The position numbers and the translations under genes were made by a program. 64,000 nt of DNA from a virus (Duplodnaviria; Caudoviricetes). The stretch spans positions 32,222 through 96,221 of the IMG/VR virus record IMGVR_UViG_3300006092_000342. One strand, given 5' to 3'. The notes beneath the pieces are model-generated. The model ran no database searches, was not told the DNA's origin, and saw only the letters and a program-made list of their open reading frames with translations. Positions 3,001-26,700 of the stretch are shown here, piece by piece (the stretch's first letter is position 1; the number at the start of each line of letters is the position of its first letter).

Positions 3001-3082
3001 CAAAATCTAATGCTTTTTTTTTGCTATCAAAACTCTGTGTACCTCCTCCAGGAAGTTTTACAATTTGACAAGGTTGACTCAT
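1..3082 (-). CDS. Large virion cargo protein (partial, runs off left edge) with degenerate zincin-like domain; crAss-like virion RNA polymerase/cargo module
   Basis: Not in ORF track. ATG at 3082 overlaps the TGA of the upstream gene, and hand translation gives 1027 open codons to base 1 (MSQPCQIVKLPGGG...). Contains KEEFGHAIFDQL...LEEAL (motif at 1025-1039), an EExxH variant of HExxH. Position after the muzzle/cargo genes matches crAss-like synteny. No RNAP catalytic motif seen within the window. Confidence 0.8.
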   Translation of the reverse strand, partial: MSQPCQIVKLPGGGTQSFDSKKKALDFVTQNADVYDFLSKEQFIQLHANSQSNLIAQTQNGLLQRNQPVLTQIHSKDRFFYNSGKDFQVVNLEAPASLDAPTLQLHREGQDFVNSAQFKSGTPVHFIYSEKTPYNQEYGFLNFRTLARENSDKLRFTKLTAVVFTDTSNNPYPLEVTQDFKLMRTLLEEGKAQVKYVGSFHEFAGATNQSNQALRQALQKKAIEYKKKIGETDGIVTNNDIIHYSPAVTEEVKFLAGFNRRINYEEIYTDQEGNLVSKDTPGAQKQVQQKFKNLSVLSWFNKEVVPLLGIVRRKDKDPGSQYLELNNGNLIEDQSLFYNLNNGDVHLLLPSNINTGKSYVEKGQHYFPIRMITKSWGDNPIFAKRFEGIIKKIFRGDINYDVVKIEGKYQIINVVDNSTIKFNDGKDYMQNRWVDKIWNNEGVYSRYNIQFEIYADSQGIEPTKENLKNYLKTVNPKISGEVYSSLFAEAPINVIQALREFIGMQEIITKDFVDILTAAKKYKSDYKKTEFGDNADALYQKFFQEDTNIVINNLGEPTTLSNKRSQVSVEHFNNQKYLKNYIYKYGVLITNLADDRPTGDLTFWTEQVKPKSDLIKPLFSSTIDQETLSVDQARVWAQQNFPGFEITFYDKLIEDLYNGYFDRGTKMVGFAKDFISTGVLKEEFGHAIFDQLSPEQQKQLFLEVAERTGIPLTSEIELEEALMQIVRADPRDLPDGFIKRFIAILKEILNTLFNQRDAIQLFSDRFHSGYYKNVKPKKISEGVRYSLSPEYSALNNERRKEAVNIINRNYLPEILDGNSINFKLNTLKLINNLKGDDTYDISNSLEDLYDDVKNHIRSIIRDLAKQNNELNQSDISKLESLLRLMNEPALHADLRADLANSYGLKINYDIYDLEQDKLGIVKETEADVIQKLGINLRVLLYNIPDTISADNVEGDPNNYVLQGETKKIVKQTDVRNLKGVSYNKISNLFTFNFNLKDRVESLLRQLNSSNSIEEMLSKLQDLSEKGD

Positions 3083-6000
3083 ATATTACAAGGTCTAATT
3101 AAATTAGAATTTTCAAAAAGTTCATCCAAAGAAACACTATCATTTATTAATGGTATTTCTACACTATCATCAACAGGAAAATCATCCAAAAATAAAGTTT
3201 CATCATTCTGAATCTCTGGAATTTCTTCTTCTCTATTTTCTCCTTGGGAATAAAAAGTATTTATAATGCGTTTTTCAACTTCATTACGATCCGGAGATAA
3301 TACCAAAGCTTTTAAATCTGTAGTATTTTTAACTTGAGATAAAGCTTCTACAAAACTAGAATTTACTCCAGGAACATTATTTAACTGGTTAACCAACATA
3401 GTGCGTTCTGGCATAAATAAAAAAGAACGTTGAGCTTCACTGTTATTATAACGTTGATCTACCTGTTCTGGTGTTTGGCTCCCTGCAGCATCTCTTAATC
3501 GAGATAGAGCTGCTTTTATAATTGCTTTTTTCTTTTCTTCAAAAAGCTTTTTAGTTTTTGGATCTGAAGTTAAATCTGCTAAAGATTCATTATAGCCTTT
3601 TATTAAACTTTCAAAAGTATCATGGTTTAATTCTTCTCGAAAACCCATAGCATTGTTCACACCTCCTTCTCTAAAAAAGGAATCTACTTGTCTTTGAAAA
3701 TGAGCAGTTTCTTGTAAAAATTTAGCTTCATTTTTAGCACTTTTTTTCTGATCTACTAAATTAGAAAGATCCGCAGCTTCTTGCTCTGTTTGACTTATCT
3801 CTGAAATAACAGCTTCCGGAGATTTTCCAGTTTCCTCGACAGCAGTTTCGATAATATGCGCTTTATGTTCATCACTATCTTTTTTTAGATTTTTATTGTC
3901 TTTGATTAAATTAGTTAAAACTTTAGTATATGCTTTAACATAAGCATCATTTAATTTAATATCCTGCTCAATATTACCAACTTGAATAGGGTCTCCTTGT
4001 GTTTTATTTTTTTGCTCTTCTAAAAATTTACCCACTGATTGAAATTCAGTTAAATTTCCTACAGCTTCAAAAACACGTTTCCTTAATTCCGGGGTAATAT
4101 TATAATTTTTATTATTGAGATCTTTAAAAATTCTTTGACTGTAATCATAAGTTTGAGCTGTGCTAGCTAATGCATTTTCAATTTCACTAAACTGTGCTTT
4201 TATATCGTTTTTTGAGATATAGGGCGTACTACTCTTTATATCTAAATCGCCGGTACGCGCTTTTAAAGCTCCCAAAATATGTTTAACAGTATCATTATGT
4301 TCTACTCCATTTTCCCGAGCTTGATAATATAATTTATTCAAACCCTCTTGTTCTAGAACATGACGCAATTGCCAATCTTTACTTTGCTCTGCAGCTCCCT
4401 TTGCTATTTCATTTTGCATAGCTTCAAAAGCAAATTTTAGATGGCCAATAACATTTTCATCCATATTCAATGGATCCGTAATTACTGAATTTATTTTGTC
4501 TGTATCAATAAATTTCAACTTTTCTTTAATTCCTTTTTGGCGCATTTCTCCAAATCCCCAACGTGCTGCATTAAATCCTCCGGAAGTAGCCGCGCCTGTT
4601 ATAAAAGACATTGTTACTTCTGGATCCAGATTATACAAATCTTTAAAAGCAGTTAATCCCCCTCCTATAATAGTCTCCATACTAGAATTACTAGCAGAAT
4701 CTTTACTCCCCTCATATTTAGTAATATCAGTTTGAATACTTTCTTCATAACCTTCTTTACCAAGATCTAACGCGGCTTTACCCCAACGACTGGTCCAGGG
4801 TGCAAATAATTCATTAGTAATGGGCGCCACTTCTTCCGTAGCATTCCTGGCAGCTATACTGCCATAAGCACGACTCATATTAGATTTAGGAAACAAACCT
4901 AAAAGCTTATAACTAGCTAAATTGCTCAAACCTAAAATGGCTAGATTAGCTTTTCCCACATTTTCAGCTTTTGCGCGAGCAATAACTTTAGCTTCTTCCA
5001 TATCAGAGTCTTCTACAATTTTAGTAGCTTGTTCTGGTGGAATCCCGGTATCTACTAATTCTTTAATTTTAGCTTGAGTTGCCTCTTGCATGTATTGATC
5101 ATAAGCCTGGAATTTTTCTAAATCAGCTTCAAATTTAGTACCGCCAATCATGGCCCCTGTACTTCCTATAACTTCTCCGGTATGTTTACCTCTAGCTGCA
5201 GCTTCTTCTAAATCAACAGTAACTTTTCCTACTCGAGACTTAATGTAAGCTTTTATAGAAGGAGATTCAAAATCGGGTTTATCTATATATTTCTGAAGGG
5301 TTTCTTTCCATTTTAAAGTTTCAGCTCTTTGTGCATTTTTTAAGTTTAAATTACCTTTAACGGTCCCTAAACCTTTTCCAACAGCCCCGGCACCTTTAGT
5401 TACTAAAAAGTTAGAAGCATACAATCCTCCCATAAAGCCAATACCACTTTGTAATCCTGAAGCAAAAGTAGAAGCTACCCATTCAGGATTTTGCCATGAA
5501 GGTTCTCCTTCTGGACTTTTAAAATCGACAGTAATATCTTTTTTGAATTTTTCAAAATCTTTAGTGTACTGATCGTTATAACTATTTTCAATTAATTGCT
5601 TCTCTTCTTGATTATAACTTGGTTGTATCGGAGAAGTTTTTTGTTCCCAAGTATTTTGTCGAACATCATACGCATTTTTTATAGTTTCTGGACTTGGGAG
5701 TTCTCCATTTTTAGCCCACGCACCTAAGAGTTCTTGAGATGCTGAAACCGCAGAACCCACTGCTCCAAATAAATTAAGAGCACCTCCATATAAATCTTTT
5801 AAGGTTTTGGTCACTCCGGGAACACCTCCGGTTACAATATCTTTACCTACACCATACGTACTTTCTACAGTATTTACAGCAGCTTCAACAAGACCATTGT
5901 ATCCAATAGCTCCGATAGTTTTTGCACTTCCTAGAAAACTACTCCCATCTGTTACTCCAAAACCGAATTGAGCTTCTAGACCTGTATTAGACTCTGGACT

Positions 6001-6411
6001 TTCCTGTGGATAGATCGGACCTGGAGTTCCTCGAGGAGCTTCCTTATTTAATCTTCGTTGAGTTCTATTATAATTTTCGACTAACTGCTTTCTATCGTAT
6101 TGACCTATAAGATCCAAATTAAATTTACCGCTTTGTAATGCTTGTATAATTTCAGCTTTGGTACCTTCAATTTTAGTGCTATCTGCTTTAAAATCGCGGA
6201 AACTAGGTATGACAGGATCGTAAATTAAATCATCATAATTTACTTTAGAAGACTCTTTTCTTATCTTAGGATTAATTTCATAAATACCTTTGGATCCGTT
6301 ATTCCCATAAATGATTCCAAATCCCCCATCATCTTTTGGAATAATTTTTAGATCCCCTTTGCCTGTTTTAAAACCTTCGAAAAGTTTTGATACAATTTCT
6401 TCGGGATTCAT
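3079..6411 (-). CDS. Large virion cargo (ejection) protein
   Basis: 1110 aa with Gly/Ala-rich amphipathic segments (ASGLQSGIGFMGG, FITGAATSGG) typical of podophage ejection proteins; position in cargo block. Confidence 0.6.
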   Translation of the reverse strand: MNPEEIVSKLFEGFKTGKGDLKIIPKDDGGFGIIYGNNGSKGIYEINPKIRKESSKVNYDDLIYDPVIPSFRDFKADSTKIEGTKAEIIQALQSGKFNLDLIGQYDRKQLVENYNRTQRRLNKEAPRGTPGPIYPQESPESNTGLEAQFGFGVTDGSSFLGSAKTIGAIGYNGLVEAAVNTVESTYGVGKDIVTGGVPGVTKTLKDLYGGALNLFGAVGSAVSASQELLGAWAKNGELPSPETIKNAYDVRQNTWEQKTSPIQPSYNQEEKQLIENSYNDQYTKDFEKFKKDITVDFKSPEGEPSWQNPEWVASTFASGLQSGIGFMGGLYASNFLVTKGAGAVGKGLGTVKGNLNLKNAQRAETLKWKETLQKYIDKPDFESPSIKAYIKSRVGKVTVDLEEAAARGKHTGEVIGSTGAMIGGTKFEADLEKFQAYDQYMQEATQAKIKELVDTGIPPEQATKIVEDSDMEEAKVIARAKAENVGKANLAILGLSNLASYKLLGLFPKSNMSRAYGSIAARNATEEVAPITNELFAPWTSRWGKAALDLGKEGYEESIQTDITKYEGSKDSASNSSMETIIGGGLTAFKDLYNLDPEVTMSFITGAATSGGFNAARWGFGEMRQKGIKEKLKFIDTDKINSVITDPLNMDENVIGHLKFAFEAMQNEIAKGAAEQSKDWQLRHVLEQEGLNKLYYQARENGVEHNDTVKHILGALKARTGDLDIKSSTPYISKNDIKAQFSEIENALASTAQTYDYSQRIFKDLNNKNYNITPELRKRVFEAVGNLTEFQSVGKFLEEQKNKTQGDPIQVGNIEQDIKLNDAYVKAYTKVLTNLIKDNKNLKKDSDEHKAHIIETAVEETGKSPEAVISEISQTEQEAADLSNLVDQKKSAKNEAKFLQETAHFQRQVDSFFREGGVNNAMGFREELNHDTFESLIKGYNESLADLTSDPKTKKLFEEKKKAIIKAALSRLRDAAGSQTPEQVDQRYNNSEAQRSFLFMPERTMLVNQLNNVPGVNSSFVEALSQVKNTTDLKALVLSPDRNEVEKRIINTFYSQGENREEEIPEIQNDETLFLDDFPVDDSVEIPLINDSVSLDELFENSNLIRPCNI

Positions 6412-6420
6412 ATATAAACT

Positions 6421-8766
6421 TTATTTTTTTGGTAATCCTGGTAATTCTAACTCAGATGTATCTTGTAAAATTAGATCCAGTTCTGTTTTTTGTTCTGGAA
6501 TTTCTTTATGAAATTCAACATGGAGATGAGGTAATACTTCAGGATTAATATGTTCTTCTATTATCTGACTTCCTTGTGATTTAAGATTATCTAAAACTAA
6601 GGCCCCCTCTTGATCATTAGATTCCAAAATAGCTTTACGATATTTACGAACACTCGCAGCATCCGGTCCTTCAAAAATTATTTTTTTAATTGATTTGGCA
6701 TAGTTATCATTAAATAACCTTAACCCCGCCACTACAGCTTTTGGATTCTGTCCCGTAAAATCTAACGCAGTTCCTCCTTGAAGATGGGCACTATCTGGAT
6801 TGCTATCTAATCTAATACCTTTTGTATCTGCAGCTCCGCTAATTGCTTGTTCTAAAATACCGGGATACTTATTACTTAAATCCTTTACTTTACTAAATAG
6901 TTGTGGATCTAAACTCAAAATTTGTTCCGCATTTAAATCTCTGAACTTAGTATTTTTTACAAATTCTATATTAGAAGGATCCTGTGAGTTTAATTTCAGA
7001 TTTTCATTTAATGCCGGTGTTGAACTATTTGTAGAAAATTCGCCCTTAGCTTTATACATTTTATAAACTTCTTGACCGGTTTTTATATTATCATCCGTAA
7101 GTACTTCTCCTTGAAATGGAGGAGAAAATATAATGTCTTTTATTCTAAAGCGAGGAATTCCATCTGATCCGGGTTTATCATAATCCATGCTTACTTTCTT
7201 ACGAATTTCTTCATTAGACAACCCTTGCTTACGTGCATTAGCAATATACTGCTGAACAATCTGTAAATTATTTGTTACAGCCTCTCCTACTGTAATGCTC
7301 ATACCTCCTATTTCATCATTACCTCCCATTGGAGTTTCATTTACAACATTCCAATATAATTCTTGCGGAGGTTTTCCCGGATATTGAATTGTTAAATTTC
7401 TATCCGGAGAAGGTCGTTTAATAACTGTATTATTAGAATCAAACGGTAAAAACCCTTTATCTACTATCGAAGTATTAGAACTTAAAGGTTTTCCATCAGG
7501 TAATGTAATAGCTTCAGTCCAATCTCCAATACCAGGCAAGTTAGATAAATCTCCTACCTGATTATCTGGAATTCCGATATCGTGAGTTTTTCGTGTACTT
7601 AAATCTTGAGTGCGTTGTCCTGGATTATTGTCTTCGCGTGGGTTTATAGAAACAACCTTGCCGTTATCAAAAACAGAAAGGACACGACCTGCTCTTTGAC
7701 TAGATTTACTTTCTACCCATTCTTTTGCTAACTCTTTTCGCTTTGTAGCTGGATTGGTCCAATAAATGCTAACAGCATTTCCTTCATATTTATTAGGACT
7801 GCCGGCTGCTCCCGGTACCATAAAGGTCTTCTCCATTCCTTCTTTAATACTCTTATCTACAATAGGATTTCCAGTTCCATAGTTGAAAGTCATACTACTT
7901 CCCGGAGTCATAGTATTGTAACTATATCTACTATTATTCCAAGCTCTCCAATGATCTTCTAAAGATCTCGGTTTAAATGTAGGATCTTCTTTTTGTTTTT
8001 GCAATTCATTTTTGTAAGATTCAAGAGCTCCTCCAAAGTCTATTAAATCATTCCCTTTTACACTTCCATTTGCAATTCCCATTTTAATAATACTAGGAAC
8101 CAATGGATCTGTTAAGATATCATCTATATATTTTTGGTTTTTCTTAGTTTGTTCTAAGGCATAATTCTTTGCAGTTGTATCTGCTAAACTTTCTTGTGTT
8201 GCAGCATTTGAATGGGCAATATTGGCATTAACAGCTGCATCTTGTAACTTCTGAGTCTGATCATCGAAATAGTCAGTAATATTCAGTCCTTCAAAACTAC
8301 TTCCTTTTGTATTTGCAATTTCATCTAACTTTCCATAGTAATTAACTGCATTTCTTCCTAATTTCTCTTTTAAAACTTCTCCTCTTTTTATGTATTCATC
8401 CATTTTCCCATAATCCAACATTGCATTACGCATTTCAGGATGTTGTAATGCAGAAAGAAGCTGAGATTGTAATTCAGTAGCTTGATCGATATTATGGACC
8501 CCCCGTTTTAAAGTTTCTTCTACAGGAGCTAAATGCATAGCTACTACATCTGCATCTTTAGGGAGATATTTTAAATTTTTAAATAACTCATGACTTTGGT
8601 ATAAATTCTCCGTCACGAACTTCTGTTCTTGAAGTTGTCTATTTTTTTCCTCGCCTATTAAAGCATACATCTTTAATAAAGCATTTGTATCTAATCCTCC
8701 ACGATCATCTCGCGCAATTCTAGGAGCATTAATAGGCGCTGGAAGAATTCCTTGTGTTAGTGGCAT
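6421..8766 (-). CDS. Virion cargo protein with C-terminal M15/LAS-type Zn peptidase-like domain
   Basis: SAHLQGGTALDF...PHLHVEF resembles the SxH...D...HxH signature of LAS peptidoglycan peptidases. Start moved to ATG 8766, just after the upstream stop. Confidence 0.6.
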   Translation of the reverse strand: MPLTQGILPAPINAPRIARDDRGGLDTNALLKMYALIGEEKNRQLQEQKFVTENLYQSHELFKNLKYLPKDADVVAMHLAPVEETLKRGVHNIDQATELQSQLLSALQHPEMRNAMLDYGKMDEYIKRGEVLKEKLGRNAVNYYGKLDEIANTKGSSFEGLNITDYFDDQTQKLQDAAVNANIAHSNAATQESLADTTAKNYALEQTKKNQKYIDDILTDPLVPSIIKMGIANGSVKGNDLIDFGGALESYKNELQKQKEDPTFKPRSLEDHWRAWNNSRYSYNTMTPGSSMTFNYGTGNPIVDKSIKEGMEKTFMVPGAAGSPNKYEGNAVSIYWTNPATKRKELAKEWVESKSSQRAGRVLSVFDNGKVVSINPREDNNPGQRTQDLSTRKTHDIGIPDNQVGDLSNLPGIGDWTEAITLPDGKPLSSNTSIVDKGFLPFDSNNTVIKRPSPDRNLTIQYPGKPPQELYWNVVNETPMGGNDEIGGMSITVGEAVTNNLQIVQQYIANARKQGLSNEEIRKKVSMDYDKPGSDGIPRFRIKDIIFSPPFQGEVLTDDNIKTGQEVYKMYKAKGEFSTNSSTPALNENLKLNSQDPSNIEFVKNTKFRDLNAEQILSLDPQLFSKVKDLSNKYPGILEQAISGAADTKGIRLDSNPDSAHLQGGTALDFTGQNPKAVVAGLRLFNDNYAKSIKKIIFEGPDAASVRKYRKAILESNDQEGALVLDNLKSQGSQIIEEHINPEVLPHLHVEFHKEIPEQKTELDLILQDTSELELPGLPKK

Positions 8767-8767
8767 G

Positions 8768-11545
8768 TTATTTAAAAGGTTGGCCTGTAGATAATTGTAT
8801 TCTTTTTTGAGCACTTATAGGCCCTTGCAATTGTTTAAATCGCATTAATTTTTGAAATCGCTTATCGTTATAAAAGTTAGTAGGATTGCTAGAAATAATA
8901 CTAGAAATTTCATTATCTGCACTTTCTTCGGTAAGATCTCCAAATTCATCTACAGTTGTATTACTTAAAGTTTTAGTAGGAGTTGCAGTTGAAACAGTAG
9001 AATTTATCCCCTTTAAAAAGGAAGAAGTTCCTACAGGCATTCCGGTCATTCTTCCAAACTTATCCATAACTTTCATCAGGTGCTTTGACATAATTAAATT
9101 AGAAATCTCACCTTCTTTTCCAGATTCAAAAGCTTGTTTAGCTTGAGATTCTTGTGCAGATAAATTTCCTAAATTAGAAATAGTATTTACCAAAGGCCTG
9201 GTAACATTAAAAATATACTGATTTTGGAACTCTTTGTTTTTATTAACTTGTGCTGTATAATTTGCTAAATTCTGATCTTCTGCTGCAGCCCTTTGTCGAT
9301 CTAATTGATCATTACGGATTCCTGCATTTAAAACAGCTTTGTTTCGTTCGTTTACATTATTATTACTAGAAAGATAAAAAGGAACTTTTTGTGCACTTAC
9401 CCCTTGATTTTCTAATACTTGCATTTTTATAGCATCTTGATCCGCTAAACTATTATCATATACTCTTGCAATTCTACTTACATCCTCTGGTTTAAATTTG
9501 CGAGCTTGCAACTCAGAACTCGTACTGTAAATATCATTAGCAGGATTTTGTAAAGCAGAAGCAGCACTTGCAGCTATCCCAGACCCTACTGTAAATAATC
9601 GAGCTGTATTTAAATTTGAATTATCAAAGTTTTTATTTTCTAAGTCTTTTAATCTTTTATTAATGTAATCTTCTATTTCACTTCCTTCTTCATAACGTCT
9701 AACTTCCATTCCTTTCTTAGCTTCGGGAATTTCAGCTTGTTCCGGAGTATCTCCACGCATGAGAGTATTTAAATCTTTAACCAAATCTAAATAAGGAATT
9801 CTGCTTTTTTTATTTCCTTCCCAAGCCATTTTATCGAAAATATCGGTTTCAACATTTTCCGGTTTTTTGTATTTGTTTAAAACTTTCTTTAAAATAGCTA
9901 CAGGAGTTAAACCTTTTGCTTTACCATAAAATTCACCTGCAAGAGTTTTTTCTTGTGCCTCCGGAAGTTTCAGGTCTTCACTATAAAATGCAGGAGTTAA
10001 TTCGGTTTTTATTTTCTCTGCTAGCTTACGAGGCACTTTTAGATTTTTGTCATTACTGACAACATAAGCCCCGGGAGCTATAATATTTCCCATTTCATCC
10101 CTTTCCAAGGGAGTTAAAGTATCTGTTACTTTATTAGAATCTCCACTTGATTTATATTCTTTATGAGTCTTTTTTGCACCAGGTTTTGTTACATCATAAT
10201 TAGGATGGATTACTAATTCCTCTTTACTAACTTGTAAAGGCACCAAATTATTTGCAGGAACTATCTCCGGAGCTTCTCCACCTGATTGTCTTATAGGAAT
10301 TTCAGTAACATAATCTGCACTAGGAAACATTATCCGTTTAACCCCTGCTTTCATAACCTTCAATTTACCTACATTTGGAATTCCTAAAACATCAAACGGT
10401 GTATTTTTCATAGTTAGGTGATTGCTTGGAATAATATTAAAATCATTTTCGAAACTGTCAGTTCCGGGAGTATATCCGGTTTTGTTTACATTTCCTCCGG
10501 CTTCCATGTATGCTACTCTCCCTGTATCGCCATTAATACTATTTGCGGCTAACCAGGCTTTATTTTGTTGTTCAGTCTGATCAGCTTTATTAGTAGCATT
10601 AATTGCATACTTCATTAAAGAAGCTGCTCCCTGTGTAATAGCTCCTATAGGCCCTGCAGTCATAAATCCTCCGATAGTACCTAAAGCAGTTCCCCCTATA
10701 ACTCCTTTTTTATCTCCTTGTAACCCTACTCCATCTGCCTGACTACTGATTAGACTGCCTAAAGGTGCTGTATATTTTGTATAATCCTTCCCGGTAAGAA
10801 AACCTAAAACATCCCTTTTTTTACCCTTTTCTGGATCAAAAGGAATATCATCAAAATTACTAGAAGCGGAAGCCACACTTCCGCTGACGCTGGGATTAGG
10901 TTCCGGAATTGGGTTAAAAGGCTTTAATTCAGGTTGTAAAAAATCATCTTCAGGCCGGGAATCTTCTCCATAAGTAGGAGAACCTTCTTGTCGCTTTGCA
11001 ACACGAGCTTTGGGATTGAAAGTATTAACATCTTTCCCATCCTGAATGATCTTATACATTTGCTCAATGTAATCGGTTTCTGCTTGGCGACTTGGCAATG
11101 ATTTTGCCATGGTATAATCAAACAGATAATTCTTGGTTGTTTGCGGAAAATCCGGATCTCCAATCGCCTTTTTAATATTACCCTGATATTTCTGATATAA
11201 ACTCCGGGCTTTGGTAGGTCCCATATTATAAGCAGCAGCATTCCAATGTTCATCCTTAAACCCGTACTCTGCTAGAATTGAAGAGTATTTCATGCCCCCG
11301 GCTAAAGCTTCTGGTCCGGTTAAACTCTTGTAATCTCTATTTTTAAAATAACCTTTTTTTTGGAGTTCTTCGAAAGCAATAGGACTTAATTGAAGGGGGC
11401 CTGCTTTTCCATTAGTTAAATCTGGTTTGGTTAGGTGTGCACTGTCATGACGACTTTCTACCCAGGCTAATCTCTCATAATGTTTGGGAGACATTAAAAG
11501 TCCCCCGTATGGAGATCCTCCCTGTTGTAGATTGTCATGTTTCAT
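8768..11545 (-). CDS. Virion cargo protein with N-terminal lytic transglycosylase (SLT-like) domain
   Basis: WVES (catalytic Glu), GPLQL, AAAYNMGP and TKNY are the SLT motifs; the rest is low-complexity with recurrent xxGG/xxGS motifs. Confidence 0.75.
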   Translation of the reverse strand: MKHDNLQQGGSPYGGLLMSPKHYERLAWVESRHDSAHLTKPDLTNGKAGPLQLSPIAFEELQKKGYFKNRDYKSLTGPEALAGGMKYSSILAEYGFKDEHWNAAAYNMGPTKARSLYQKYQGNIKKAIGDPDFPQTTKNYLFDYTMAKSLPSRQAETDYIEQMYKIIQDGKDVNTFNPKARVAKRQEGSPTYGEDSRPEDDFLQPELKPFNPIPEPNPSVSGSVASASSNFDDIPFDPEKGKKRDVLGFLTGKDYTKYTAPLGSLISSQADGVGLQGDKKGVIGGTALGTIGGFMTAGPIGAITQGAASLMKYAINATNKADQTEQQNKAWLAANSINGDTGRVAYMEAGGNVNKTGYTPGTDSFENDFNIIPSNHLTMKNTPFDVLGIPNVGKLKVMKAGVKRIMFPSADYVTEIPIRQSGGEAPEIVPANNLVPLQVSKEELVIHPNYDVTKPGAKKTHKEYKSSGDSNKVTDTLTPLERDEMGNIIAPGAYVVSNDKNLKVPRKLAEKIKTELTPAFYSEDLKLPEAQEKTLAGEFYGKAKGLTPVAILKKVLNKYKKPENVETDIFDKMAWEGNKKSRIPYLDLVKDLNTLMRGDTPEQAEIPEAKKGMEVRRYEEGSEIEDYINKRLKDLENKNFDNSNLNTARLFTVGSGIAASAASALQNPANDIYSTSSELQARKFKPEDVSRIARVYDNSLADQDAIKMQVLENQGVSAQKVPFYLSSNNNVNERNKAVLNAGIRNDQLDRQRAAAEDQNLANYTAQVNKNKEFQNQYIFNVTRPLVNTISNLGNLSAQESQAKQAFESGKEGEISNLIMSKHLMKVMDKFGRMTGMPVGTSSFLKGINSTVSTATPTKTLSNTTVDEFGDLTEESADNEISSIISSNPTNFYNDKRFQKLMRFKQLQGPISAQKRIQLSTGQPFK

Positions 11546-14500
11546 TATCTGAGGCTGATTTTATTTTTGTCAACACATATTTTAAAATCGTTTGGACAGA
11601 TTTGTCTAGATCTTGTCGTACAAAACGATACCTTAAATACTCATCAAAAAAGACACTATCATTGGCATTTCCAAAAGTTTTGTCAAATTTAATTAAATCT
11701 TTTAACATATTGGGTAATAAGCCGTTAACCTTTTCCAATACTGCTGTAAGATCTTCTGGAGTAGATACCTTATTTAGAACTTGATAAAATTCATACTGCA
11801 TTGAATTATAACTTGTTACAGCTAAATCTCGAGGATCTGATACTGAATTTGGATTCTCGACAAAAGTTTTTAGTAATCCTGAACTTTGGTAATTATTTAA
11901 AATTCCGATATAATCAAAAAACTTATCAACTCTTCTCCATTTACCGGCAAATTCATCCCAAATCATATTTTTTAATCCTACTAGCGTGCTTGCATATTCA
12001 AAACCACGCCCGAATCGATTATTAAATTCCCGCGAAACTATGTCAATGATAAACGGGTATTTTATATCATAGAATACCAAATAAGAGTCTTTATTGTCAG
12101 CATGGCGCCATAATTTTCCATCATTCCAGTTATACATGTAGTTCCGATCCCACGTATAATAATCAGGAACATAGCTATGAAATCCTACAAAAAAACGTTT
12201 TTCTTTCCCTATGTAATAACTTAAAGTAAAACTCCTATTTTCAAACCATTCAGGATTCCCTAATTCAATCACGGTATTCGTACCTTTTAAATAAAAAATA
12301 TCATTGACTAGCTTAAGCTTTGTTGGATTTTTACATTTCCAGTCTTTTTTGGTTATTAAAATACGACTAAATCTATGATCAATTCCTAAAGAGAAACCGG
12401 TTTTATGCCCTTGACTAATACCCGGGTAATCTGGGAAATCTTCTGCTAAATACATGCGGATATTATTTTTAAAAAAAGATTTAAGGCCCCTAGTACTCAA
12501 TTCGTCATTTGAGCCTGTCCAATTATTGATCGTTCTAGCTTTCCGATCGATAAAGAAATGACCCCATTCTGAGGTAATACTAGCGCTAGGATCAATACAT
12601 CCTCCTTTACCTTCAGCAATATTACCAAAAACGTCATAAGGCTTTCCAAAGAAACCACCATCTCCTAACCGAGCTTTATCCCCATTACTGATATCTATGC
12701 TCATTTGGCCGAAACGTAAATCTTTTATTGAATCTGATGTTTGCGCCCAAACTCTGTTTCCCCAATGAATTAGATTTTTGATCAATCCAAAATTGGTATC
12801 TAAATCAATGTAATTATTAATTTTAAATCTTCGGAAAGCATCTCCTTTACTAGCAACATTTTGCTTATTGCCAATATAAACACGCCCGTTAAGCTCCCCT
12901 AAACATTTGCACAAATTATATCCAATAGGGACACCATAGTTATACCAGAGCAGTGTGAAACTTTTTGACCAATCATACTTATTATGTAAGTCATGAAACC
13001 CTTTTATCCCTCCAATTTTGGGACCGCCATCTTGATCTCCTAAACAGCTATCAATTCCTAATAATAAAATTAAATTTGTGTTTCTAGTAATACTTAAAAA
13101 AATCACATAAAAAGCTATTCCTAAACCAATCATTACATATCCTAACACGCTGGTTAAACTAATCGCAGACATCGCTCCATACATTAAAATACCTACTGCA
13201 AGTCTAATAATAGTGTTTGCCCATAGAACTAATTTATCTAATTTACTCAACCCTACAATAGACCAGTACATTCTAGATAACCACGAAATTTCTTGATCAG
13301 TCTTTGGCGGAAAATTAGGATCTAACTCCTGATTCTTAAGTTTTGGATAATAGATTTCATTGAAAGGAGCTCTTTCATCTCCCAAGATTCTAGCATGTAA
13401 ATTGACTTTACATTCTACCATAAAGGTATTGTTACTAGTAAGAACTCCAGGCCAATATTGGCTTAAACCTCTATATCCTTGAAAAGGTGTAGTACCATCC
13501 CAAGGATTTCCAGGACGAAGCATATTATTGTTTCTAGGATCATCTTCCCCGCTTTGTGGAGGATCTCCGCAATCACTTACGCCAAAAATTTGTTCAAAAA
13601 AGTTAGAAGGATTTACATTAAGACCAACCCGATCTGATACTACAGAATGTCTCTTTACGGAATATTGTCCAATATAAACATCCCCCGCTAATAAATTAAC
13701 AGCACCACAAATACTTTCCGTTTCTGTCAATAAATGAATATCTGCATATTTTGCATTCTCAATCCTTCCATATTGATTTGGAATATTTCGAAGAAGAACT
13801 GCATAATGACAAGATGCATTATGAATATCTGCTTCATGATATTTTCCATCTCCCATAAAAGAAAAATCACATGTATTATTGGCAGCGAGATTTCCAAAAT
13901 TTCGATTGCCATTATAGCTATTATCAGATAAAAAAGGATCAATTCCATGTTTTAATGTCGGAAAACTTCCAGGTTCTAATTCTAGATATACACTTGATTC
14001 CCGAAATTTATTCATTAAACTAAAAGTGAATCGATCTTCTTTATTGACTATCTTATTAGCTTCTGCATATACTGCAGCTTTTACACAATATAAACTTGGG
14101 ACTTCTCTATATTTAGGTTCTCTACGATTTTTTGCAAAAACACAAACTTCTTTAAAAACTGAATTATTGTTTACATCATACGTTACGGTAAGTCCATTTT
14201 GCAATACTGCAGAATATAAACAACCTTCGTTTGTTTCGACCTCAATAAAACACTCACAAACAAATGTAGAATTAAAGGGTAAGTTCTTAGTTGTATTACT
14301 ATCTCTGTAATTAGTTTTTCCTAATAAATCTATGGTTAAGTCATTACCTTGATTATCTAATAAACGTAGTTTAAAAGTTTTGATTCCTGTAGGAGCTGTT
14401 ATAATTTTTACTTCTCTTACTATAACAAGTCGATTAGCTGGTAATTGATTAAGCTGAATAAAAAAGCTAAAACAAAGTTCTTGTGTACAATAACCTTCCT

Positions 14501-17500
14501 CTACTAGTATTTTACTACTATTCCTATCATAATGGTTTAAATGAATCGCTTGTCTACATCCTTTTCTATTATAGTATCTCGCGGAATAACTATCTGGTTC
14601 AGTCATTTTACTGCTGGTCCCGTGTCTTCTACCCGAACCGTATATTTCTAGTGGACACTTTATTTGAGAAATATTTAAAGGCGGTTTTCCATATTGTGTA
14701 TCTGGACTAAAAAACACATATGCTGGAACTGTTGGAAGTATTCCTCCACGACTAGGAGTTCTAGAATTGTCATTTAACCATTTAATATCCATGCTAAACT
14801 TCTCTAAAGAGTTTACACCATGGTTAGGATACATGAAAGATTGAGCATGCAATTGTCCTTGGAAACAACCGACTAACTTTCCCTTTGCAATAACTCGACT
14901 ATTACTATCATCCCTGGGCTCCATACCAATCTTCCATTGGCGAATATTACATCCAGGTTTTATATAATCTTCAGAGTCTAGATCTGGAATTCCTGTAATA
15001 ATATATCCCAATAAAATAACATAAGCATCATTACTTTCTAAATTCGCAGGATCTAATCGATGTGGCACCCCATTTTGAAAACTAATATAATGAGGAAGTA
15101 CACTTTCATCCGGACCCAGAATATGTCGTATAGGCATTCCTGCATCTTGCCCATAGATAAAATTACCATTACAATCTTTATCTAATGGATAAGTCTCCGT
15201 ACTTTCCCAATATCCGCACTCTCCTTCTGCAAAAATTGGAAGATCATAATCAATAATATTGCAACCTTTTTCATCATAAATAGGAACTGGTTCGCATATT
15301 TTACTATTAAGAGCCTGACTTAAAGTAGGAGTAGTTTTACGATCAAATTGATAAACAGGAGGTTGATAAACCGGACGTTCATATATTTTAACTTCTGTCC
15401 CATCTCTGCGACGAATTATTTGTGTCTTTAGATCTAATTCGGATTCATTTTCCCAAGGTATTGTCCATTTTTTTCCAAAGAGTTGCATTAAAGGTTCACA
15501 CTTTTCCGGAATACAGCAAAGAATTGCTTTAAAATCAAAACTTTCCCAAGGATTTAAAGCTCCATATTCTGATAAGATACACGTATTACTATCATCGTTA
15601 TACCAAATAGGATTTTTTGGATTTGTAGGTAAACACCCCTGTTCCGGACAATCTGTATTACATCCTGCACATCCAGAAGGACAATCTTCTTTTTTACATT
15701 TAGTTAAACATTCTATATAACTAGAATAGTCTCCGTTATCATCAGGTAAACACCCCTGATCAGTACACCTAAAACGGCCATCTTGACTATATTCACAAGT
15801 ACTTCTACATGCCAATAAACTGCTGAATTCTCCATCCTCGGCAGCTTCACAAGCCCCATTAGTACATCGATACCTCTCTTGCCCATTTATATTGCAATGT
15901 TTTGAACACTCAAATAAGGTACTATAAGGCCCTTCGAGATCTGTAACACAATTTCCATTTGCCGGATCACATCTCCATTTACTAGTACGCTCTGCAGAAC
16001 AATTATCTTTACATGCTTGATAACTTCTCCATTCTCCATTTTGTCCTGCAGCAATACAACCGGTTTCTCTACAATCATATGTTTCTTCAGGCTCCTCATT
16101 ACATTCGCACCATCCTGTTATAGCATTTACGAAATCATCCAGAGTTCGACCAACAACAATTGAATTACCACTCATGCAGTCAAACTCAAAGCTGATATCA
16201 ATATAATCTTTAGGATCTCTATCGATTACTACGAGATGTACATTATATTGAGGTAAAGCAGCTGCTAATTGTCCCCAAACACCGCTGGCATCAAAAGCAT
16301 CACATGCAGGACAATTTGGAGTTTTATTATAAGTAATAACAACATCACAAACTCCGAGTCCTATCTGCTCGTTCCCCGTATTGTAATAACTACTGCCTGT
16401 ACTATTACCAGAACAACCTTGACTGCATCCGCCGGTACAAGAAGTACCAGAACACCCGCCAGAACATCCTGAACATTTTGCACCACAATTTTGACATAAT
16501 CCATTTTTACAACAACCTAATCCATAGCAACTTTTACTACAAGTAGCAGTGCATGGTCCTTGAACCGCTATACCTTGATAAACACTTCCCGGATTACAAT
16601 GACGACCTTTAGGACATCCTGAATTAGGATCGGTTTCATCTTGTTTATCTATTTTTAAACTAAATGCAGATACCTGGGAATCTTCCATCATTTCGTATGG
16701 ATTTCCACAATACCACTTAGTAACACTTGCAGTATTTTCTACTTGCCAGCGTTCCAACTCGCATTCAGTACAATTTCTAGGATCGGAAATAGGTATTTTT
16801 TCCCGATCATATGGAGTGGCTCGTCTCCCTGGAATATGACCAAACCTACTATAAGTACCATCACACCATACTTTTGAAAGCGCCAAACTCATAACCTCAT
16901 CTCGAGGCATGCTAGTGTATTTATGCGCTTCTGATAGAGGTGCTAATTTTGCAAACCACCTTACTCTTAAATTCCGACTATATTTAAGTATTGGAAAATT
17001 AGGTTCTCCATACGTATTAAATAGTACAGCATGTCCGTCTATAATATCAATATCTTCTCCCCTAATATAAGCTATGTCTTTATTTCGGATATCATCTATT
17101 GTAATCGGTATTCCGCTAAACTGTCTATGATTTGTAAGAAGAACTTGTTGTTTAGTTCTCGTGAAAGGAATTTTTGGTAGAAGTTTTACACTTACCTCAA
17201 AACCAATATTCCGAACAATTGCTATTTCTATAAACTCAAAATGTGCACTTCTATTTCCTTCTACAACAATATCGATTGCGTTTTCTGAAACTTCTCCCGG
17301 AATTTGATTAGGACTATCTAAAATTAAAGGATCACTTCCCCAAAAGAAATTTGTATGGTTATTATCCTCATCTGTTAAACGAACAAAAGCATAATATTTA
17401 CCTCCAACAAGATCTAATCCTCCATACTTTACTTGACGTAATTTAACCAAAGGACCGCAATCACAAGGCAATAGAAGTAAATCTTCATAAGTAACATCGC

Positions 17501-17960
17501 AAAAACTTTTACTAATATTTAATACATAGTATGTACTACAAGCAACGAAAATAACATGATGTTCTCTACACTCTCCTTTTACAAAAAACTTAGGTTTAAT
17601 CTTTTTACTAATTCCAAAATTTAATTTTTTTGTGTACTTGGAATCGTTTAAATACGTACTATACTCTTTTGTAATTAAATTTACTTTTCCGATTTCAGAA
17701 GTACCTGTAGATTGATTATAACTAAAAACAAGTAATTCATTTTTGTCAGGAATTAAAATATCTCCTCTACTTACAAATCCTTCTGGAAGACTTGCTATGA
17801 ACTCTAAAGAAGGTTCACTTGCAATTCCATAATTCTCATGATCTTCAGTTTCTACTACTCCATTTAAAAGAAAAGACCATGTACCAGGTACTTGGTTTTC
17901 CTCAAGATTTGCTAACCATAAGCCCGCATTGAGATCATTTTGAATTTGGTCTTTCTTCAT
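11535..17960 (-). CDS. Tail muzzle / stabilisation protein (P22 gp10-like, crAss Tstab) with Cys-rich and thioredoxin-like insertions
   Basis: 2141 aa. C-terminal FTLSY...FVGFHSYVPDYY and CGYWESTETYP...IRH motifs resemble crAss-like Tstab; follows the tail-tube gene. Confidence 0.75.
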   Translation of the reverse strand: MKKDQIQNDLNAGLWLANLEENQVPGTWSFLLNGVVETEDHENYGIASEPSLEFIASLPEGFVSRGDILIPDKNELLVFSYNQSTGTSEIGKVNLITKEYSTYLNDSKYTKKLNFGISKKIKPKFFVKGECREHHVIFVACSTYYVLNISKSFCDVTYEDLLLLPCDCGPLVKLRQVKYGGLDLVGGKYYAFVRLTDEDNNHTNFFWGSDPLILDSPNQIPGEVSENAIDIVVEGNRSAHFEFIEIAIVRNIGFEVSVKLLPKIPFTRTKQQVLLTNHRQFSGIPITIDDIRNKDIAYIRGEDIDIIDGHAVLFNTYGEPNFPILKYSRNLRVRWFAKLAPLSEAHKYTSMPRDEVMSLALSKVWCDGTYSRFGHIPGRRATPYDREKIPISDPRNCTECELERWQVENTASVTKWYCGNPYEMMEDSQVSAFSLKIDKQDETDPNSGCPKGRHCNPGSVYQGIAVQGPCTATCSKSCYGLGCCKNGLCQNCGAKCSGCSGGCSGTSCTGGCSQGCSGNSTGSSYYNTGNEQIGLGVCDVVITYNKTPNCPACDAFDASGVWGQLAAALPQYNVHLVVIDRDPKDYIDISFEFDCMSGNSIVVGRTLDDFVNAITGWCECNEEPEETYDCRETGCIAAGQNGEWRSYQACKDNCSAERTSKWRCDPANGNCVTDLEGPYSTLFECSKHCNINGQERYRCTNGACEAAEDGEFSSLLACRSTCEYSQDGRFRCTDQGCLPDDNGDYSSYIECLTKCKKEDCPSGCAGCNTDCPEQGCLPTNPKNPIWYNDDSNTCILSEYGALNPWESFDFKAILCCIPEKCEPLMQLFGKKWTIPWENESELDLKTQIIRRRDGTEVKIYERPVYQPPVYQFDRKTTPTLSQALNSKICEPVPIYDEKGCNIIDYDLPIFAEGECGYWESTETYPLDKDCNGNFIYGQDAGMPIRHILGPDESVLPHYISFQNGVPHRLDPANLESNDAYVILLGYIITGIPDLDSEDYIKPGCNIRQWKIGMEPRDDSNSRVIAKGKLVGCFQGQLHAQSFMYPNHGVNSLEKFSMDIKWLNDNSRTPSRGGILPTVPAYVFFSPDTQYGKPPLNISQIKCPLEIYGSGRRHGTSSKMTEPDSYSARYYNRKGCRQAIHLNHYDRNSSKILVEEGYCTQELCFSFFIQLNQLPANRLVIVREVKIITAPTGIKTFKLRLLDNQGNDLTIDLLGKTNYRDSNTTKNLPFNSTFVCECFIEVETNEGCLYSAVLQNGLTVTYDVNNNSVFKEVCVFAKNRREPKYREVPSLYCVKAAVYAEANKIVNKEDRFTFSLMNKFRESSVYLELEPGSFPTLKHGIDPFLSDNSYNGNRNFGNLAANNTCDFSFMGDGKYHEADIHNASCHYAVLLRNIPNQYGRIENAKYADIHLLTETESICGAVNLLAGDVYIGQYSVKRHSVVSDRVGLNVNPSNFFEQIFGVSDCGDPPQSGEDDPRNNNMLRPGNPWDGTTPFQGYRGLSQYWPGVLTSNNTFMVECKVNLHARILGDERAPFNEIYYPKLKNQELDPNFPPKTDQEISWLSRMYWSIVGLSKLDKLVLWANTIIRLAVGILMYGAMSAISLTSVLGYVMIGLGIAFYVIFLSITRNTNLILLLGIDSCLGDQDGGPKIGGIKGFHDLHNKYDWSKSFTLLWYNYGVPIGYNLCKCLGELNGRVYIGNKQNVASKGDAFRRFKINNYIDLDTNFGLIKNLIHWGNRVWAQTSDSIKDLRFGQMSIDISNGDKARLGDGGFFGKPYDVFGNIAEGKGGCIDPSASITSEWGHFFIDRKARTINNWTGSNDELSTRGLKSFFKNNIRMYLAEDFPDYPGISQGHKTGFSLGIDHRFSRILITKKDWKCKNPTKLKLVNDIFYLKGTNTVIELGNPEWFENRSFTLSYYIGKEKRFFVGFHSYVPDYYTWDRNYMYNWNDGKLWRHADNKDSYLVFYDIKYPFIIDIVSREFNNRFGRGFEYASTLVGLKNMIWDEFAGKWRRVDKFFDYIGILNNYQSSGLLKTFVENPNSVSDPRDLAVTSYNSMQYEFYQVLNKVSTPEDLTAVLEKVNGLLPNMLKDLIKFDKTFGNANDSVFFDEYLRYRFVRQDLDKSVQTILKYVLTKIKSASDNET

Positions 17961-17975
17961 TAAACTTTAAATACA

Positions 17976-18944
17976 TTATTCTAAATAGTTCTCAAAATCC
18001 CCAAAATCATATCCTCTACGATACATATTTTCATAGCCATTTGTTGGAATTAATTGATTTAATTGTGCTGCAATAGAATCCCATCGATCAGGACTAATTT
18101 TAGATAATTCTCCAATTGCTGCATACTCTGTTTCATCTAATAACTGCTTACTTAATTTCAGACGAGCTTGTGTTTCATTGTCTAATTTATTGCGACTTCT
18201 CGCATAATCCCACCAAAAATCTAAATTAGCCCTAATAGCTGCAAATACTTTAGGATTATTTGGCACCTTCAAAAATCCATCCTGCATTGCATATCCTTTG
18301 TAGGATAACAATACCCAACCTTCATCAAAGTTTAAAACAATATTGGGCAAATCAATTTCATACGCAATTTCAGTATCTACATTTAAGTTTAAACATTCTT
18401 TTGTATAATATTGACTATTATGAAAAGCTCCTTGTGCTGGACGCATTATATGAAACCCAGGAGCTAATTTACAATTTCCATAAGGATGTAAAGGATCTGG
18501 ACTTTTAAAATTATGGAAATGAGGATAATTTTTTAAACGTAATTCCGGATAATCGAATTCCTGTAGATCGATTCGATATAATAAATCAGAACATTCACAT
18601 TCAGTTTTACCACACTTATTGCATTCTAGACTTACAACAAATTTACAATCATCTCCCAAATTGTATTGAATGTAATCTCTAATAATTGTACGAGTAGGAG
18701 GTACTTGTATTTGTGCAAAAGCTGCTAATGTCACATGACGAAACCCTGGAGGTAATACGCCTACTTTATTTTTTATAGGAATTAAGGCAATTCCTTTTAT
18801 AAAATTGTCCCCACGTAATAAATTTTGAATACAATCATTTATAACTGCATACGCCCAACGTTGTTTAGGCAAATCAGTATCATCTACTTGACGTGTTAAC
18901 CAATCTTTATAGGCTTCTTCTATATGTAAAAATGATGTTTCCAT
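17976..18944 (-). CDS. Tail tubular/ring protein (P22 gp4-like, crAss Ttub)
   Basis: Directly upstream of the muzzle; NFDEGWVLLSYKG...GFLKVPNN motif like crAss Ttub; 322 aa. Confidence 0.65.
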   Translation of the reverse strand: METSFLHIEEAYKDWLTRQVDDTDLPKQRWAYAVINDCIQNLLRGDNFIKGIALIPIKNKVGVLPPGFRHVTLAAFAQIQVPPTRTIIRDYIQYNLGDDCKFVVSLECNKCGKTECECSDLLYRIDLQEFDYPELRLKNYPHFHNFKSPDPLHPYGNCKLAPGFHIMRPAQGAFHNSQYYTKECLNLNVDTEIAYEIDLPNIVLNFDEGWVLLSYKGYAMQDGFLKVPNNPKVFAAIRANLDFWWDYARSRNKLDNETQARLKLSKQLLDETEYAAIGELSKISPDRWDSIAAQLNQLIPTNGYENMYRRGYDFGDFENYLE

Positions 18945-23700: not shown

Positions 23701-26700
23701 TTAACAATTTAAAGTTATAGATTCATTTGAACTAAAGGCTGTTGGATCTCCTAAACAAACTAATCTCACACTAACTGTAGAATTATATGGATATTCATAA
23801 TCAATAGTAGCTCCCGCTAGAGGACTTACAGTACCTCGATAGACATACCCACTGCCGGCATCAATATAAACTAATACAGTAGTATTATTTGTATTGTTGA
23901 CTCCCACTTTTCGATTTCCACCCACTACAGTGCAATATAAATCTCCCGGATCAAGTACTACAGCCCCGCAAGCTGCTCCATTAGAGCACTCTCCAATGCG
24001 TACTTCACATTGACAACCATCTCCCGGATATCCAATTAACTGGTAATGAATAACCCGATCACGATTTGTAATTGGAACCCCACTCACAAAGCCGGTACCT
24101 CCCGGTGCAATTGTCATGGTAGGACTTACCCAAATCGATTGATTAACGCAAGTATTGTTAAAGTCACTTTCTAAAATTCTTACAGTAACAGCGGCAGTAT
24201 GTGTTGCTAAACCGCTTAAATGAATAGCAAAGGCACTACCGCATGGATCTCCTGTTATCGAGAATAAGTCTCCAAAATCCATGCATGGGTCTCCGCTGCC
24301 ACCGCCGGCACTACAATTGACTGTAATAGTCTTCTCAACAGTACAGAATTCGCTATCAGTTATAGTACGAATTTGGTAAATTCCATTGCTTAAGAGATGT
24401 CCGGCTAAAACAGTCGTCCAAACACCGGCAATTTTAACTTGAACATCTGTACTTCCACCTGTCCATTGTAAACCAGGACTTCCGCCAGAACAATTATAGG
24501 TTACTGTTCCTAAATCATCTACTACTGTAAGAGTTTTGGTAACACTTCCTAATAAACAGTTTTGGCCGGGACAAGCCAACATAATATCAACTTGAAGAGT
24601 AGTACTAGCTTTTACTAGAACAAAATCGGTTTTAATAACTATTGGATCTATCCAAGAACCTGTTGGAATAGTATAAGCTGGCTGTGCTACTCCATCAATT
24701 TTTAATAAGAAATGTACGCTACAACCCGCCGGTAAAGCCGGAGTAGTAGGATCATCCAAGCCTGTAATACTCAATTCTCCATTAGAACAGTCTAAATCAA
24801 TATCAGGAGTTCCGATATCAATAGCTGCACAAGTATTACATTTTAAGGTAATACTCTTATAACAAGTTGGATTAGCTGCTACGCGAACATATATAGTTTC
24901 AGTAGCCCCAGGCGCTAATGCTGAAGGTAATGCAATCGGATTTGTGTCTGCAGCCCAAGCTCCGGTACCTCCAATAGAGACTTCATCCCAAGCCGGACTA
25001 CTTACGATCGTAGCTTCATCACAATCTGTATTTAAAGTTGCACTAGTAATAGTTAAAGCACAAGTATCGCAATTAACAACCAAATCTAAAGCTGTATTAC
25101 AATCGTGGTTATCCACTCTTCGTAATCTCACTTTTCCTGGATAAGTTGCATTGGATAATACAGAGGCAATTCGTTTTGTAGCCCCTAATAAATACCAATC
25201 CGTACCATTCAAGGAATATTCAGTAGGAATGCTTCCTAAACTATTTACAACAATTTGTTGTAAATCACAATCATAATTGACATTTGGATTTCCTAAATCA
25301 CAACAAGTCATTGAGAAATTCAAACGTTGTTCACATCCGAAAGCATCTGTAACTTTTACATACCAATCACCACTTTCCATCATTCCTGCAAAAGTGAAAG
25401 TATTTGGAACCGGTGCATCGTAAATAAAGCTATCAACTTCATGATCAATTGGAGGAATGGTTCTGACAACAACTACTCTATAAGGAGCAGTTCCTCCCGT
25501 AAGTTCATATTGGAACCCGGTCGTACAACTAGGAATTCCGATCAAACTTAAACTCATTGGAGTTACACTACAGTTACAAGGGTTATTGATACTGAATGTT
25601 TTTACAATATCGCAGATATTACACTCATCCCCTGGAACTTTTAATCGAACTTCCGTTACAGGAACACCATAATTTATGGTAATACCGCCTGTGAATAGTT
25701 TTCCAGAAGTTACTGTATAGCTTCCATATAAACTACCATTAATCCATAACTCATAAACTTTACCTTCATACAGGCTACATACTGTAGCCTCATCAATTGT
25801 AATTTCAGTATTACATAATGATTGATTAGGAGTTACAACTAAGTTTGGCGGCTGACAGAAACCAACTTTTGTAGGTCTGCTTTCATCTCCCCAACAACTA
25901 AAGAAAGTATCTTTATCACAACCACAATCAGTTAATAATTTTACATATTTTCCTATTTCAAGACCTTCCGCAGCGCCGAATATATCCCGATAAAAATTAC
26001 CCACTTTTAAAGCATAAGCTTCTCTGGCTTTTACTAGATTAGATAAAGCAGTTCCTTTGTACCAGGTAAATAAAGGTAATTTACAACCGGCACGTTTTAC
26101 CAAAGGAATAACTGCCGATTTAGTGGCTCCACAACCTGCAACACTTACTTTAGTACCTGCAGGAATAAAATATTTACAATTATTTTCAAACGTGAAATCA
26201 ATATCAGTTTTGATAATGAAATCGTAACGAATCACTGTAGCATTTACTACAGGGAGAGCGCATGCAGATTGATAGGCATACTGTAAATTATTTACAGGAA
26301 CATATCCCCAATCTTCTGTAAAAGTCTGAATAGTATCTTCAGAACCATTACTGTAAAAAGCTTTGATCTCAATATTGTTAACTCCTAGATTTGGCGGGAA
26401 ATCTTTGTAGATTCCGGTCATATCTAATAAGATCGAGTTTTGGTTATGGCCTTTACGTAACTTTCTGTTGAAAGATATCAATCCAGTAGAATCTACAGAA
26501 ATGTCTAAAGCATACCCAATGTCAGGACAGCCACAACAATCTTGTGTAGTTAATCTACCTTCTAATTTACAATTTAGATTGTCTTTAACGATTTTCAGTT
26601 CATCGAGACACTCTAATTTTTTATGTTCTTCACAAACTCCTGCAGGACAATCACAGCCATTTACCTGAGCACAAGTTGTACAATCAAAGCTATCACAAGG

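Follow-up and report, generated by a model that had tools for sequence, protein, structure and literature searches.

Thioredoxin oxidoreductases (Trx, PF00085; Thioredoxin_2, PF13098; the a-domains of protein disulfide isomerase (PDI); DsbA) are built from a strand-CxxC-helix-strand unit followed by a strand-strand-helix unit, with the CxxC at the N-terminus of helix 1. In the smaller SelW, the elements run in the order β-α-β-β-β-α, and the CxxC/U site follows strand 1. A thioredoxin-fold protein with a CxxC has also been described in a virion, as the separate mimivirus protein R443 (PMC13186993). Here we describe a putative thioredoxin-like module within the tail-tip (muzzle) protein of an uncultured crass-like phage, found in a window of 64,000 nucleotides that is part of the 96-kb virus record IMGVR_UViG_3300006092_000342; all coordinates below are window positions. 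The module occupies residues 533–622 (16095..16364, minus strand) of the 2141-aa muzzle protein P0001 (11535..17960, minus strand), and on the models it is a divergent, minimal domain of the thioredoxin superfamily with the order β-CxxC-α-β-β-β-α. Unlike the oxidoreductases, it stays below family thresholds, is predicted to lack a helix between strands 2 and 3, has Ile at the position of the cis-Pro, carries four additional conserved cysteines and is embedded in a virion protein instead of being a free enzyme; it differs from R443 in being a domain of a tail component. The structurally characterized homologue of its host protein is PhiCrAss001 gp44 (PDB 7qok/7qol/8ckb), in which no match was found for the module or for the Cys-rich insert around it. 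The fold is well known; what is apparently new, as far as we could find, is its occurrence with a CxxC inside a phage muzzle. Full-text literature searches for domains of the thioredoxin type in crassvirus proteins or in phage tail or fibre proteins returned no description.

The site at the centre of the module is CPAC (Cys550-Pro-Ala-Cys553, 16302..16313, minus strand). The minus-strand translations of 11535–17960 and of 16026–16388 both contain GVCDVVITYNKTPNCPACDAFDASGVWGQLAAALPQYNVHLVVIDRDPKDY, the peptide of residues 540–581. Two AlphaFold2 (AF2) models were computed, one of the module from a 3-sequence alignment and one of residues 533–760 (alignments of 3 and 5 sequences). Both predict strand-CxxC-helix-strand-strand-strand-helix, with a predicted local distance difference test (pLDDT) score of 70–84 in the core. 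The predicted elements, all on the minus strand, are β1 (538–546), α1 (551–568, with a kink at SG), β2 (572–580), β3 (590–595), β4 (598–602) and α3 (607–617). In module numbering, the first strand covers residues 14–22, the two cysteines are residues 26 and 29, and the helix starts at 27, which places the CxxC after strand 1, at the N-terminal end of helix 1. The predicted fold has the four-strand mixed sheet and the β-α-β and β-β-α units of the thioredoxin fold; what makes it minimal is that neither model shows a helix joining strands 2 and 3.

Structural comparison pointed to the same fold. Nearly all Foldseek matches of both models in the PDB were thioredoxin-fold proteins at probabilities of ~0.99–1.0, including PDI, ERp46/57 and Trx h. 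The top 50 VIA-align matches among 48,161 representative chains were almost entirely of the thioredoxin fold as well (Z 6.0–7.4, 75–97 residues aligned), including ERdj5, DsbA, Bacteroides fragilis TrxP and SelW. These lists carry weight because they are uniformly one fold, not because of their Z scores. Closest in size are the minimal thioredoxin-like proteins SelW/Rdx (2npb), 4o32 and BCE_0499 (4euy), which have 86–89 residues and align with the module in VIA-align at Z 6.0–7.3 and root mean square deviations of 2.9–3.2 Å over 75–79 residues, most of each length; unlike the module, they are free cytosolic proteins, and they have no detectable sequence relationship to it. An earlier note on this DNA, made from the sequence alone, had quoted the CPAC peptide exactly, had read a strand-CxxC-helix-strand order from it, had suspected a truncated fold and had proposed AlphaFold with Foldseek as a check. 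The peptide and its position agree with our translation, the predicted order and the missing helix bear out the rest, and the proposed check indeed predicts a thioredoxin fold; the span marked at the time, 16110–16350, corresponds to residues ~538–617, the core of the module.

For the N-terminal half of the module, the likeness extends to sequence profiles. We aligned the trimmed module alignment with an alignment of nine phage thioredoxins using hhalign, which gave a probability of 93.7% and a score of 41.0 over the N-terminal 42 columns, with CPAC placed on the CxxC of WCGPC. In 200 column shuffles the maximum score was 24.4; in 200 further shuffles with the CxxC block held fixed, the maximum was 26.7 (mean 13.4, standard deviation 3.0), and the real score lies ~9 standard deviations above. 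Because these CxxC-preserving shuffles peak so far below 41.0, the likeness to thioredoxins exceeds the motif itself. This distinction matters for P0001, which holds 80 cysteines and also contains CTEC, CQNC, CSGC and CAGC: a bare CxxC in such a protein is not beyond chance, whereas the sequence context of CPAC is, given the real score and both shuffle maxima. With Escherichia coli NrdH, GrxA or both as template, that is, with templates of only one or two sequences, hhalign gave probabilities of 4–35% and scores of 18–25 over the N-terminal part, short of the C-terminal TVP and GG-x-DD region; these matches are too weak to single out a subfamily. Pfam Thioredoxin_2 matched the homologue P0015 at E = 0.019 (15.7 bits; cut-off 27). 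In the ESM Atlas, the nearest clusters (score 0.88), several of which are viral, carry families of glutaredoxins or thioredoxins, which we take as a lead only; PF00462 occurs in 36% of the members of the nearest one. Sequence searches with the module and with the complete insert in Pfam, NCBIfam and the PDB produced no usable match, and a myomesin FnIII match (E = 0.018) and matches to SAKe and transfer proteins were set aside as chance or as stemming from unrelated columns. On the models and the profile alignment together, residues ~533–622 very probably adopt a thioredoxin-like fold.

The module is rare. An exhaustive HMMER search of 1.84 billion representative proteins recovered only two true relatives: P0004, a 2395-aa muzzle homologue that is 42% identical to P0001 overall, and P0015, a 141-aa fragment on a 575-bp contig. 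Only the first ~105 residues of P0015 are trusted; residues ~106–141 are His/Tyr-rich, unlike the 4-Cys repeats that follow the module in P0001, and may reflect a frameshift or an assembly error. A word-index homologue search of the insert found the query itself only, and scans of viral contigs and metagenome contigs for the module or its relatives confirmed nothing. The conservation described here is a comparison of three sequences. Both relatives keep the CxxC, as CVPC in P0004, where it is invariant in the 10 cluster members that cover the site, and as CVYC in P0015. All six module cysteines (538, 550, 553, 595, 618 and 620) are common to the three sequences. At the cis-Pro position, a MAFFT alignment places MPEFYVDC of P0004 and NPYFEISC of P0015 over DISFEFDC of P0001, and the two relatives share a Pro six residues before the conserved Cys595.

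The protein that carries the module is a crassvirus muzzle protein, homologous to gp44 by sequence. It matches Pfam PF25731 (crAss_MUZ) just above threshold (28.6 bits; cut-off 27), and a profile of P0001 and 11 homologues (12 sequences) matches gp44 in PDB 7qok at E = 2e-28. Directly upstream, the gene at 17976–18944 has a weak ring-protein match, and a crassvirus major capsid protein gene lies at 35618–37192, so that the sequence match above threshold is joined by a ring-protein-like neighbour in a structural module. The phage itself is a very divergent crass-like virus: the capsid protein gave a single weak tblastn match among 50,697 phage records. Megablast of the muzzle gene against phages gave no match, and with the whole muzzle protein tblastn reached only three distant phages, in their C-terminal propeller region.

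Within the muzzle, the module lies in a lineage-specific Cys-rich insertion of ~480 aa (residues ~420–900, 15261..16703, minus strand), with 46 cysteines in residues 441–860. Eight more distant muzzle homologues are gapped here, lacking the insertion, and contain ~1% Cys; in P0005 and P0006 the site is partly filled by other Cys-rich material without the module. Upstream of the module lies a Cys/Gly-rich tract (residues 449–516, 16413..16616). Downstream are four tandem repeats of ~33 aa with the pattern C-x4/6-C-x13/14-C-x3-C, located by regular expression (15696..16073; residues 630–654, 664–689, 699–722 and 732–755), and then a second Cys/Gly-rich tract (residues 760–821, 15498..15683); all of these are on the minus strand. 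The placing of the module between two Cys-rich blocks of a tail muzzle protein in the earlier note therefore holds on both counts, block arrangement and host protein. All four repeats are conserved in P0004, which has at least one further copy farther downstream. AF2 predicts each repeat to be a β-hairpin plus a helix; the repeats have no Pfam or PDB sequence match and no named look-alike in the ESM Atlas. Their spacing recalls C2H2 zinc fingers, but the ligands would be all-Cys. A multi-domain PDI arrangement (a-b-b'-a') of several tandem thioredoxin-fold domains does not fit, as only one module was found in the phage and its downstream flank consists of these hairpin-helix repeats.

In the profile alignment, the insertion is bracketed by gp44 residues ~394 and ~555, a stretch made up of IG2 and the beginning of the E-F insertion, from which the crass domain is formed; by this alignment, it maps to the distal IG2/crass-domain region of the muzzle. 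According to the gp44 structure paper, this region is at the distal tip and likely contacts the cell, and among crassviruses the IG2 and crass domains differ in length through insertions that alter surface properties. Between two 2395-aa variants, P0004 and P0023 (the most divergent member of the P0004 cluster), 42 of 76 amino-acid differences fall in the Cys-rich region 430–1160, which is 30% of the length. This comparison suggests that the Cys-rich region diversifies fastest in the P0004 cluster, which fits an exposed, fast-evolving surface.

The positions of the six conserved cysteines, read on the predicted fold, suggest a division of the module into two ends. Strands of the thioredoxin fold are ordered 4-3-1-2, and strand 3 runs antiparallel to the others. 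Cys538 (16347..16349) is the first residue of β1 and Cys595 (16176..16178) the last of β3, both on the minus strand, and with this strand order the two would be cross-strand neighbours and probable partners. The conserved CxC of Cys618-Glu-Cys620 (16101..16109, minus strand) comes right after α3 and would lie at the same end of the domain as Cys538 and Cys595, with the CxxC at the opposite end. By this topology, a zinc site shared between the CxxC and the other four cysteines, which the earlier note had listed as a finding that would refute its reading, is unlikely.

The explanation that best accounts for the whole is that a thioredoxin-like domain was recruited into the distal muzzle and that its CxxC is redox-labile and acts in cis. 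We put its probability at about 0.4, and a catalytic role of the CxxC is no more than plausible. Besides fold and conservation, its context speaks for it: the insert has 46 cysteines, tail and fibre proteins of this phage are far richer in Cys than the capsid and cargo proteins checked, disulfides are known to stabilise crassvirus tails, and the crass domain has been proposed to touch the cell. Computation gave us the sequence, how conserved and rare it is, a fold prediction, an alignment of profiles and a position on the muzzle; the cysteine geometry, the disulfide bonding of the neighbouring blocks and the chemistry are what we infer. In this proposal, the domain would have entered, together with Cys-rich mini-domains, a lineage-specific insertion of the distal IG2/crass part, with CPAC where thioredoxins canonically have their active site, at the N-terminal end of helix 1, and the other four conserved cysteines clustered at the opposite end, where the domain would meet its neighbours. 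The CxxC would be a redox-labile pair engaged in thiol-disulfide exchange with the Cys-rich modules around it. Assembly of the particle takes place in a reducing cytoplasm, and the ~46 cysteines of the insert, if they are disulfide-bonded, would have to find their correct partners once outside the cell; a CxxC tethered beside them could catalyse or proof-read this pairing as an oxidase or isomerase without an external redox partner. The function supposed in the earlier note, a built-in isomerase or redox trigger, is likewise a conjecture.

A special case, which we consider unlikely, is that such a redox-active CxxC works as a latch at the tail tip. The analogy is with the CXXC of the gamma-type retroviral Env surface subunit (SU): once the receptor is bound, this motif isomerises a labile disulfide and thereby releases the next conformational step (PMC9967133). 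Env resembles the proposed trigger, by analogy only, in having a CxxC built into an entry machine; it differs in that its CXXC is not in a thioredoxin fold, is unrelated and belongs to an enveloped animal virus, and no partner motif was identified in the muzzle. In the resting virion, one cysteine of the CxxC would be tied up in a labile disulfide with a Cys-rich module or subunit next to it. When the tail meets the envelope of the host, or the host's reducing surface or periplasm, the second cysteine might resolve this bond, and the IG2/crass domains would be freed to rearrange so that the muzzle gate opens. Ile in place of the cis-Pro would favour a long-lived mixed disulfide. Long-lived mixed disulfides are known from P151 mutants of DsbA.

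Several observations count against a redox-active domain acting in cis, and they concern both the site and the fold. At the site, Ile589 (16194..16196, minus strand) stands in P0001 before β3 where the cis-Pro is expected, and the earlier note was right that a cis-Pro is not evident here. The dipeptide inside the CxxC is different in all three sequences (PA, VP and VY). Between P0001 and P0004, no segment is less conserved than the module (34% identity), and 45 of the 53 cysteines at residues 380–940 are conserved in these two proteins. Conservation of the CxxC in homologues, which had been suggested as a check, consequently gives a divided answer: the motif is kept in both known homologues, but this is not diagnostic of catalysis because so many nearby cysteines are kept too. 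As to the fold, the mean pLDDT is a moderate 67 from alignments of 3 and 5 sequences, the Foldseek E values are ~1e-2, the VIA-align Z scores (<8) are only middling, the confident part of the hhalign alignment is limited to the N-terminal half of the module, and no curated family model in Pfam or NCBIfam reaches threshold for the module.

The observations at the site are those on which a structural reading draws, in which the thioredoxin fold was exapted as a scaffold or surface decoration and the CxxC is a structural disulfide or an unused pair. Among so many conserved regional cysteines, the CxxC is nothing special; the cis-Pro is lost in P0001, the inner dipeptide varies, and the models lack a helix between strands 2 and 3. 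The varying IG2/crass insertions of other crassviruses, with their effect on surface properties, fit a decoration as well, and mimivirus R443 offers a direct precedent that also weighs against redox chemistry here, as this virion thioredoxin works without its redox cysteines, its CxxC being dispensable for the fitness effect (PMC13186993). Set against this, three sequences with identities of just 34–44% all retain a CxxC at the canonical site, and two of the three retain the cis-Pro. Moreover, thioredoxin-like domains that have degenerated to a structural role usually lose the CxxC, as in the PDI b domains, KaiB, mitoribosomal proteins and NDUFA2. Exaptation is nonetheless a serious rival, and we regard it as a real, if doubtful, contender. 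The weaknesses at the level of the fold would instead suit a chance CxxC in a Cys-rich stretch, for which AlphaFold, given a shallow alignment, returned a common α/β arrangement. This is very improbable: the sequence-only hhalign score exceeds the CxxC-preserving shuffles by a wide margin, the structural match lists are nearly homogeneous for one fold, and the Pfam and language-model leads agree on the same clan.

A metal site is a further reading that keeps the fold and changes the chemistry. Cys550 and Cys553 would join ligands of another domain or subunit in binding Zn or an Fe-S cluster, and the flanking 4-Cys repeats would be zinc-finger-like and not disulfide knots. Such repeats would suit assembly in a reducing cytoplasm, and their spacing and predicted hairpin-helix structure do recall C2H2 fingers. 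The lack of a cis-Pro in P0001 is relevant here too, for Su et al. are said to have reported in 2007 that the cis-Pro prevents metal binding by the thiolates of thioredoxin-family proteins; by the same token, the two relatives that keep the Pro speak against a metal. So does the probable placing of the four remaining module cysteines, at the end of the domain away from the CxxC. No metal-binding family was matched, and the PhiCrAss001 tail structure reports stabilising disulfides, not metal sites. We therefore consider metal binding by the CxxC unlikely.

A second CxxC of the muzzle protein, CTEC (residues 397–400, 16761–16772, minus strand), lies outside the Cys-rich insertion, just ahead of RWxVENTA, an almost invariant motif in the core of the muzzle; its conserved counterparts are CSLC in P0004 and CSDC in P0005. 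More broadly, cysteine use in the structural module (1–43351) is sharply divided between the tail/fibre block and the capsid and cargo proteins. The tail/fibre block (11535–34594) has 1.2–9.7% Cys and includes a 1454-aa protein (23701–28065) with 141 cysteines, whereas four cargo-like giants (1–11545), the capsid protein and three other large capsid-region proteins have 0–0.4%. The phage also encodes a free-standing thioredoxin-domain protein of 205 aa (48895–49512, minus strand), with WCGPC, a PF00085 match at E = 2e-13 and an unassigned C-terminal half of 100 aa. It directly adjoins a Cpn60/GroEL gene (47208–48854, minus strand; E = 2e-53), and the pair could serve as folding helpers for the Cys-rich tail proteins. 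We rejected an origin of the muzzle module by copying of this thioredoxin, as no close similarity supports it. A homologue search for shorter relatives with the phage thioredoxin and a viral-contig scan with the same query yielded no candidates.

If the module is structural only, it would be another metabolic fold exapted into a virion, and its value would lie mainly in marking one deep-branching crass-like lineage. If its CxxC is redox-active, it would be, within the literature searched, the first built-in thiol-disulfide catalyst or switch found for a phage tail. It would then bear on how podovirus-like crassviruses open the muzzle gate and on how particles built in a reducing cytoplasm gain correct disulfides, and as a small, expressible domain the module would make both questions testable.

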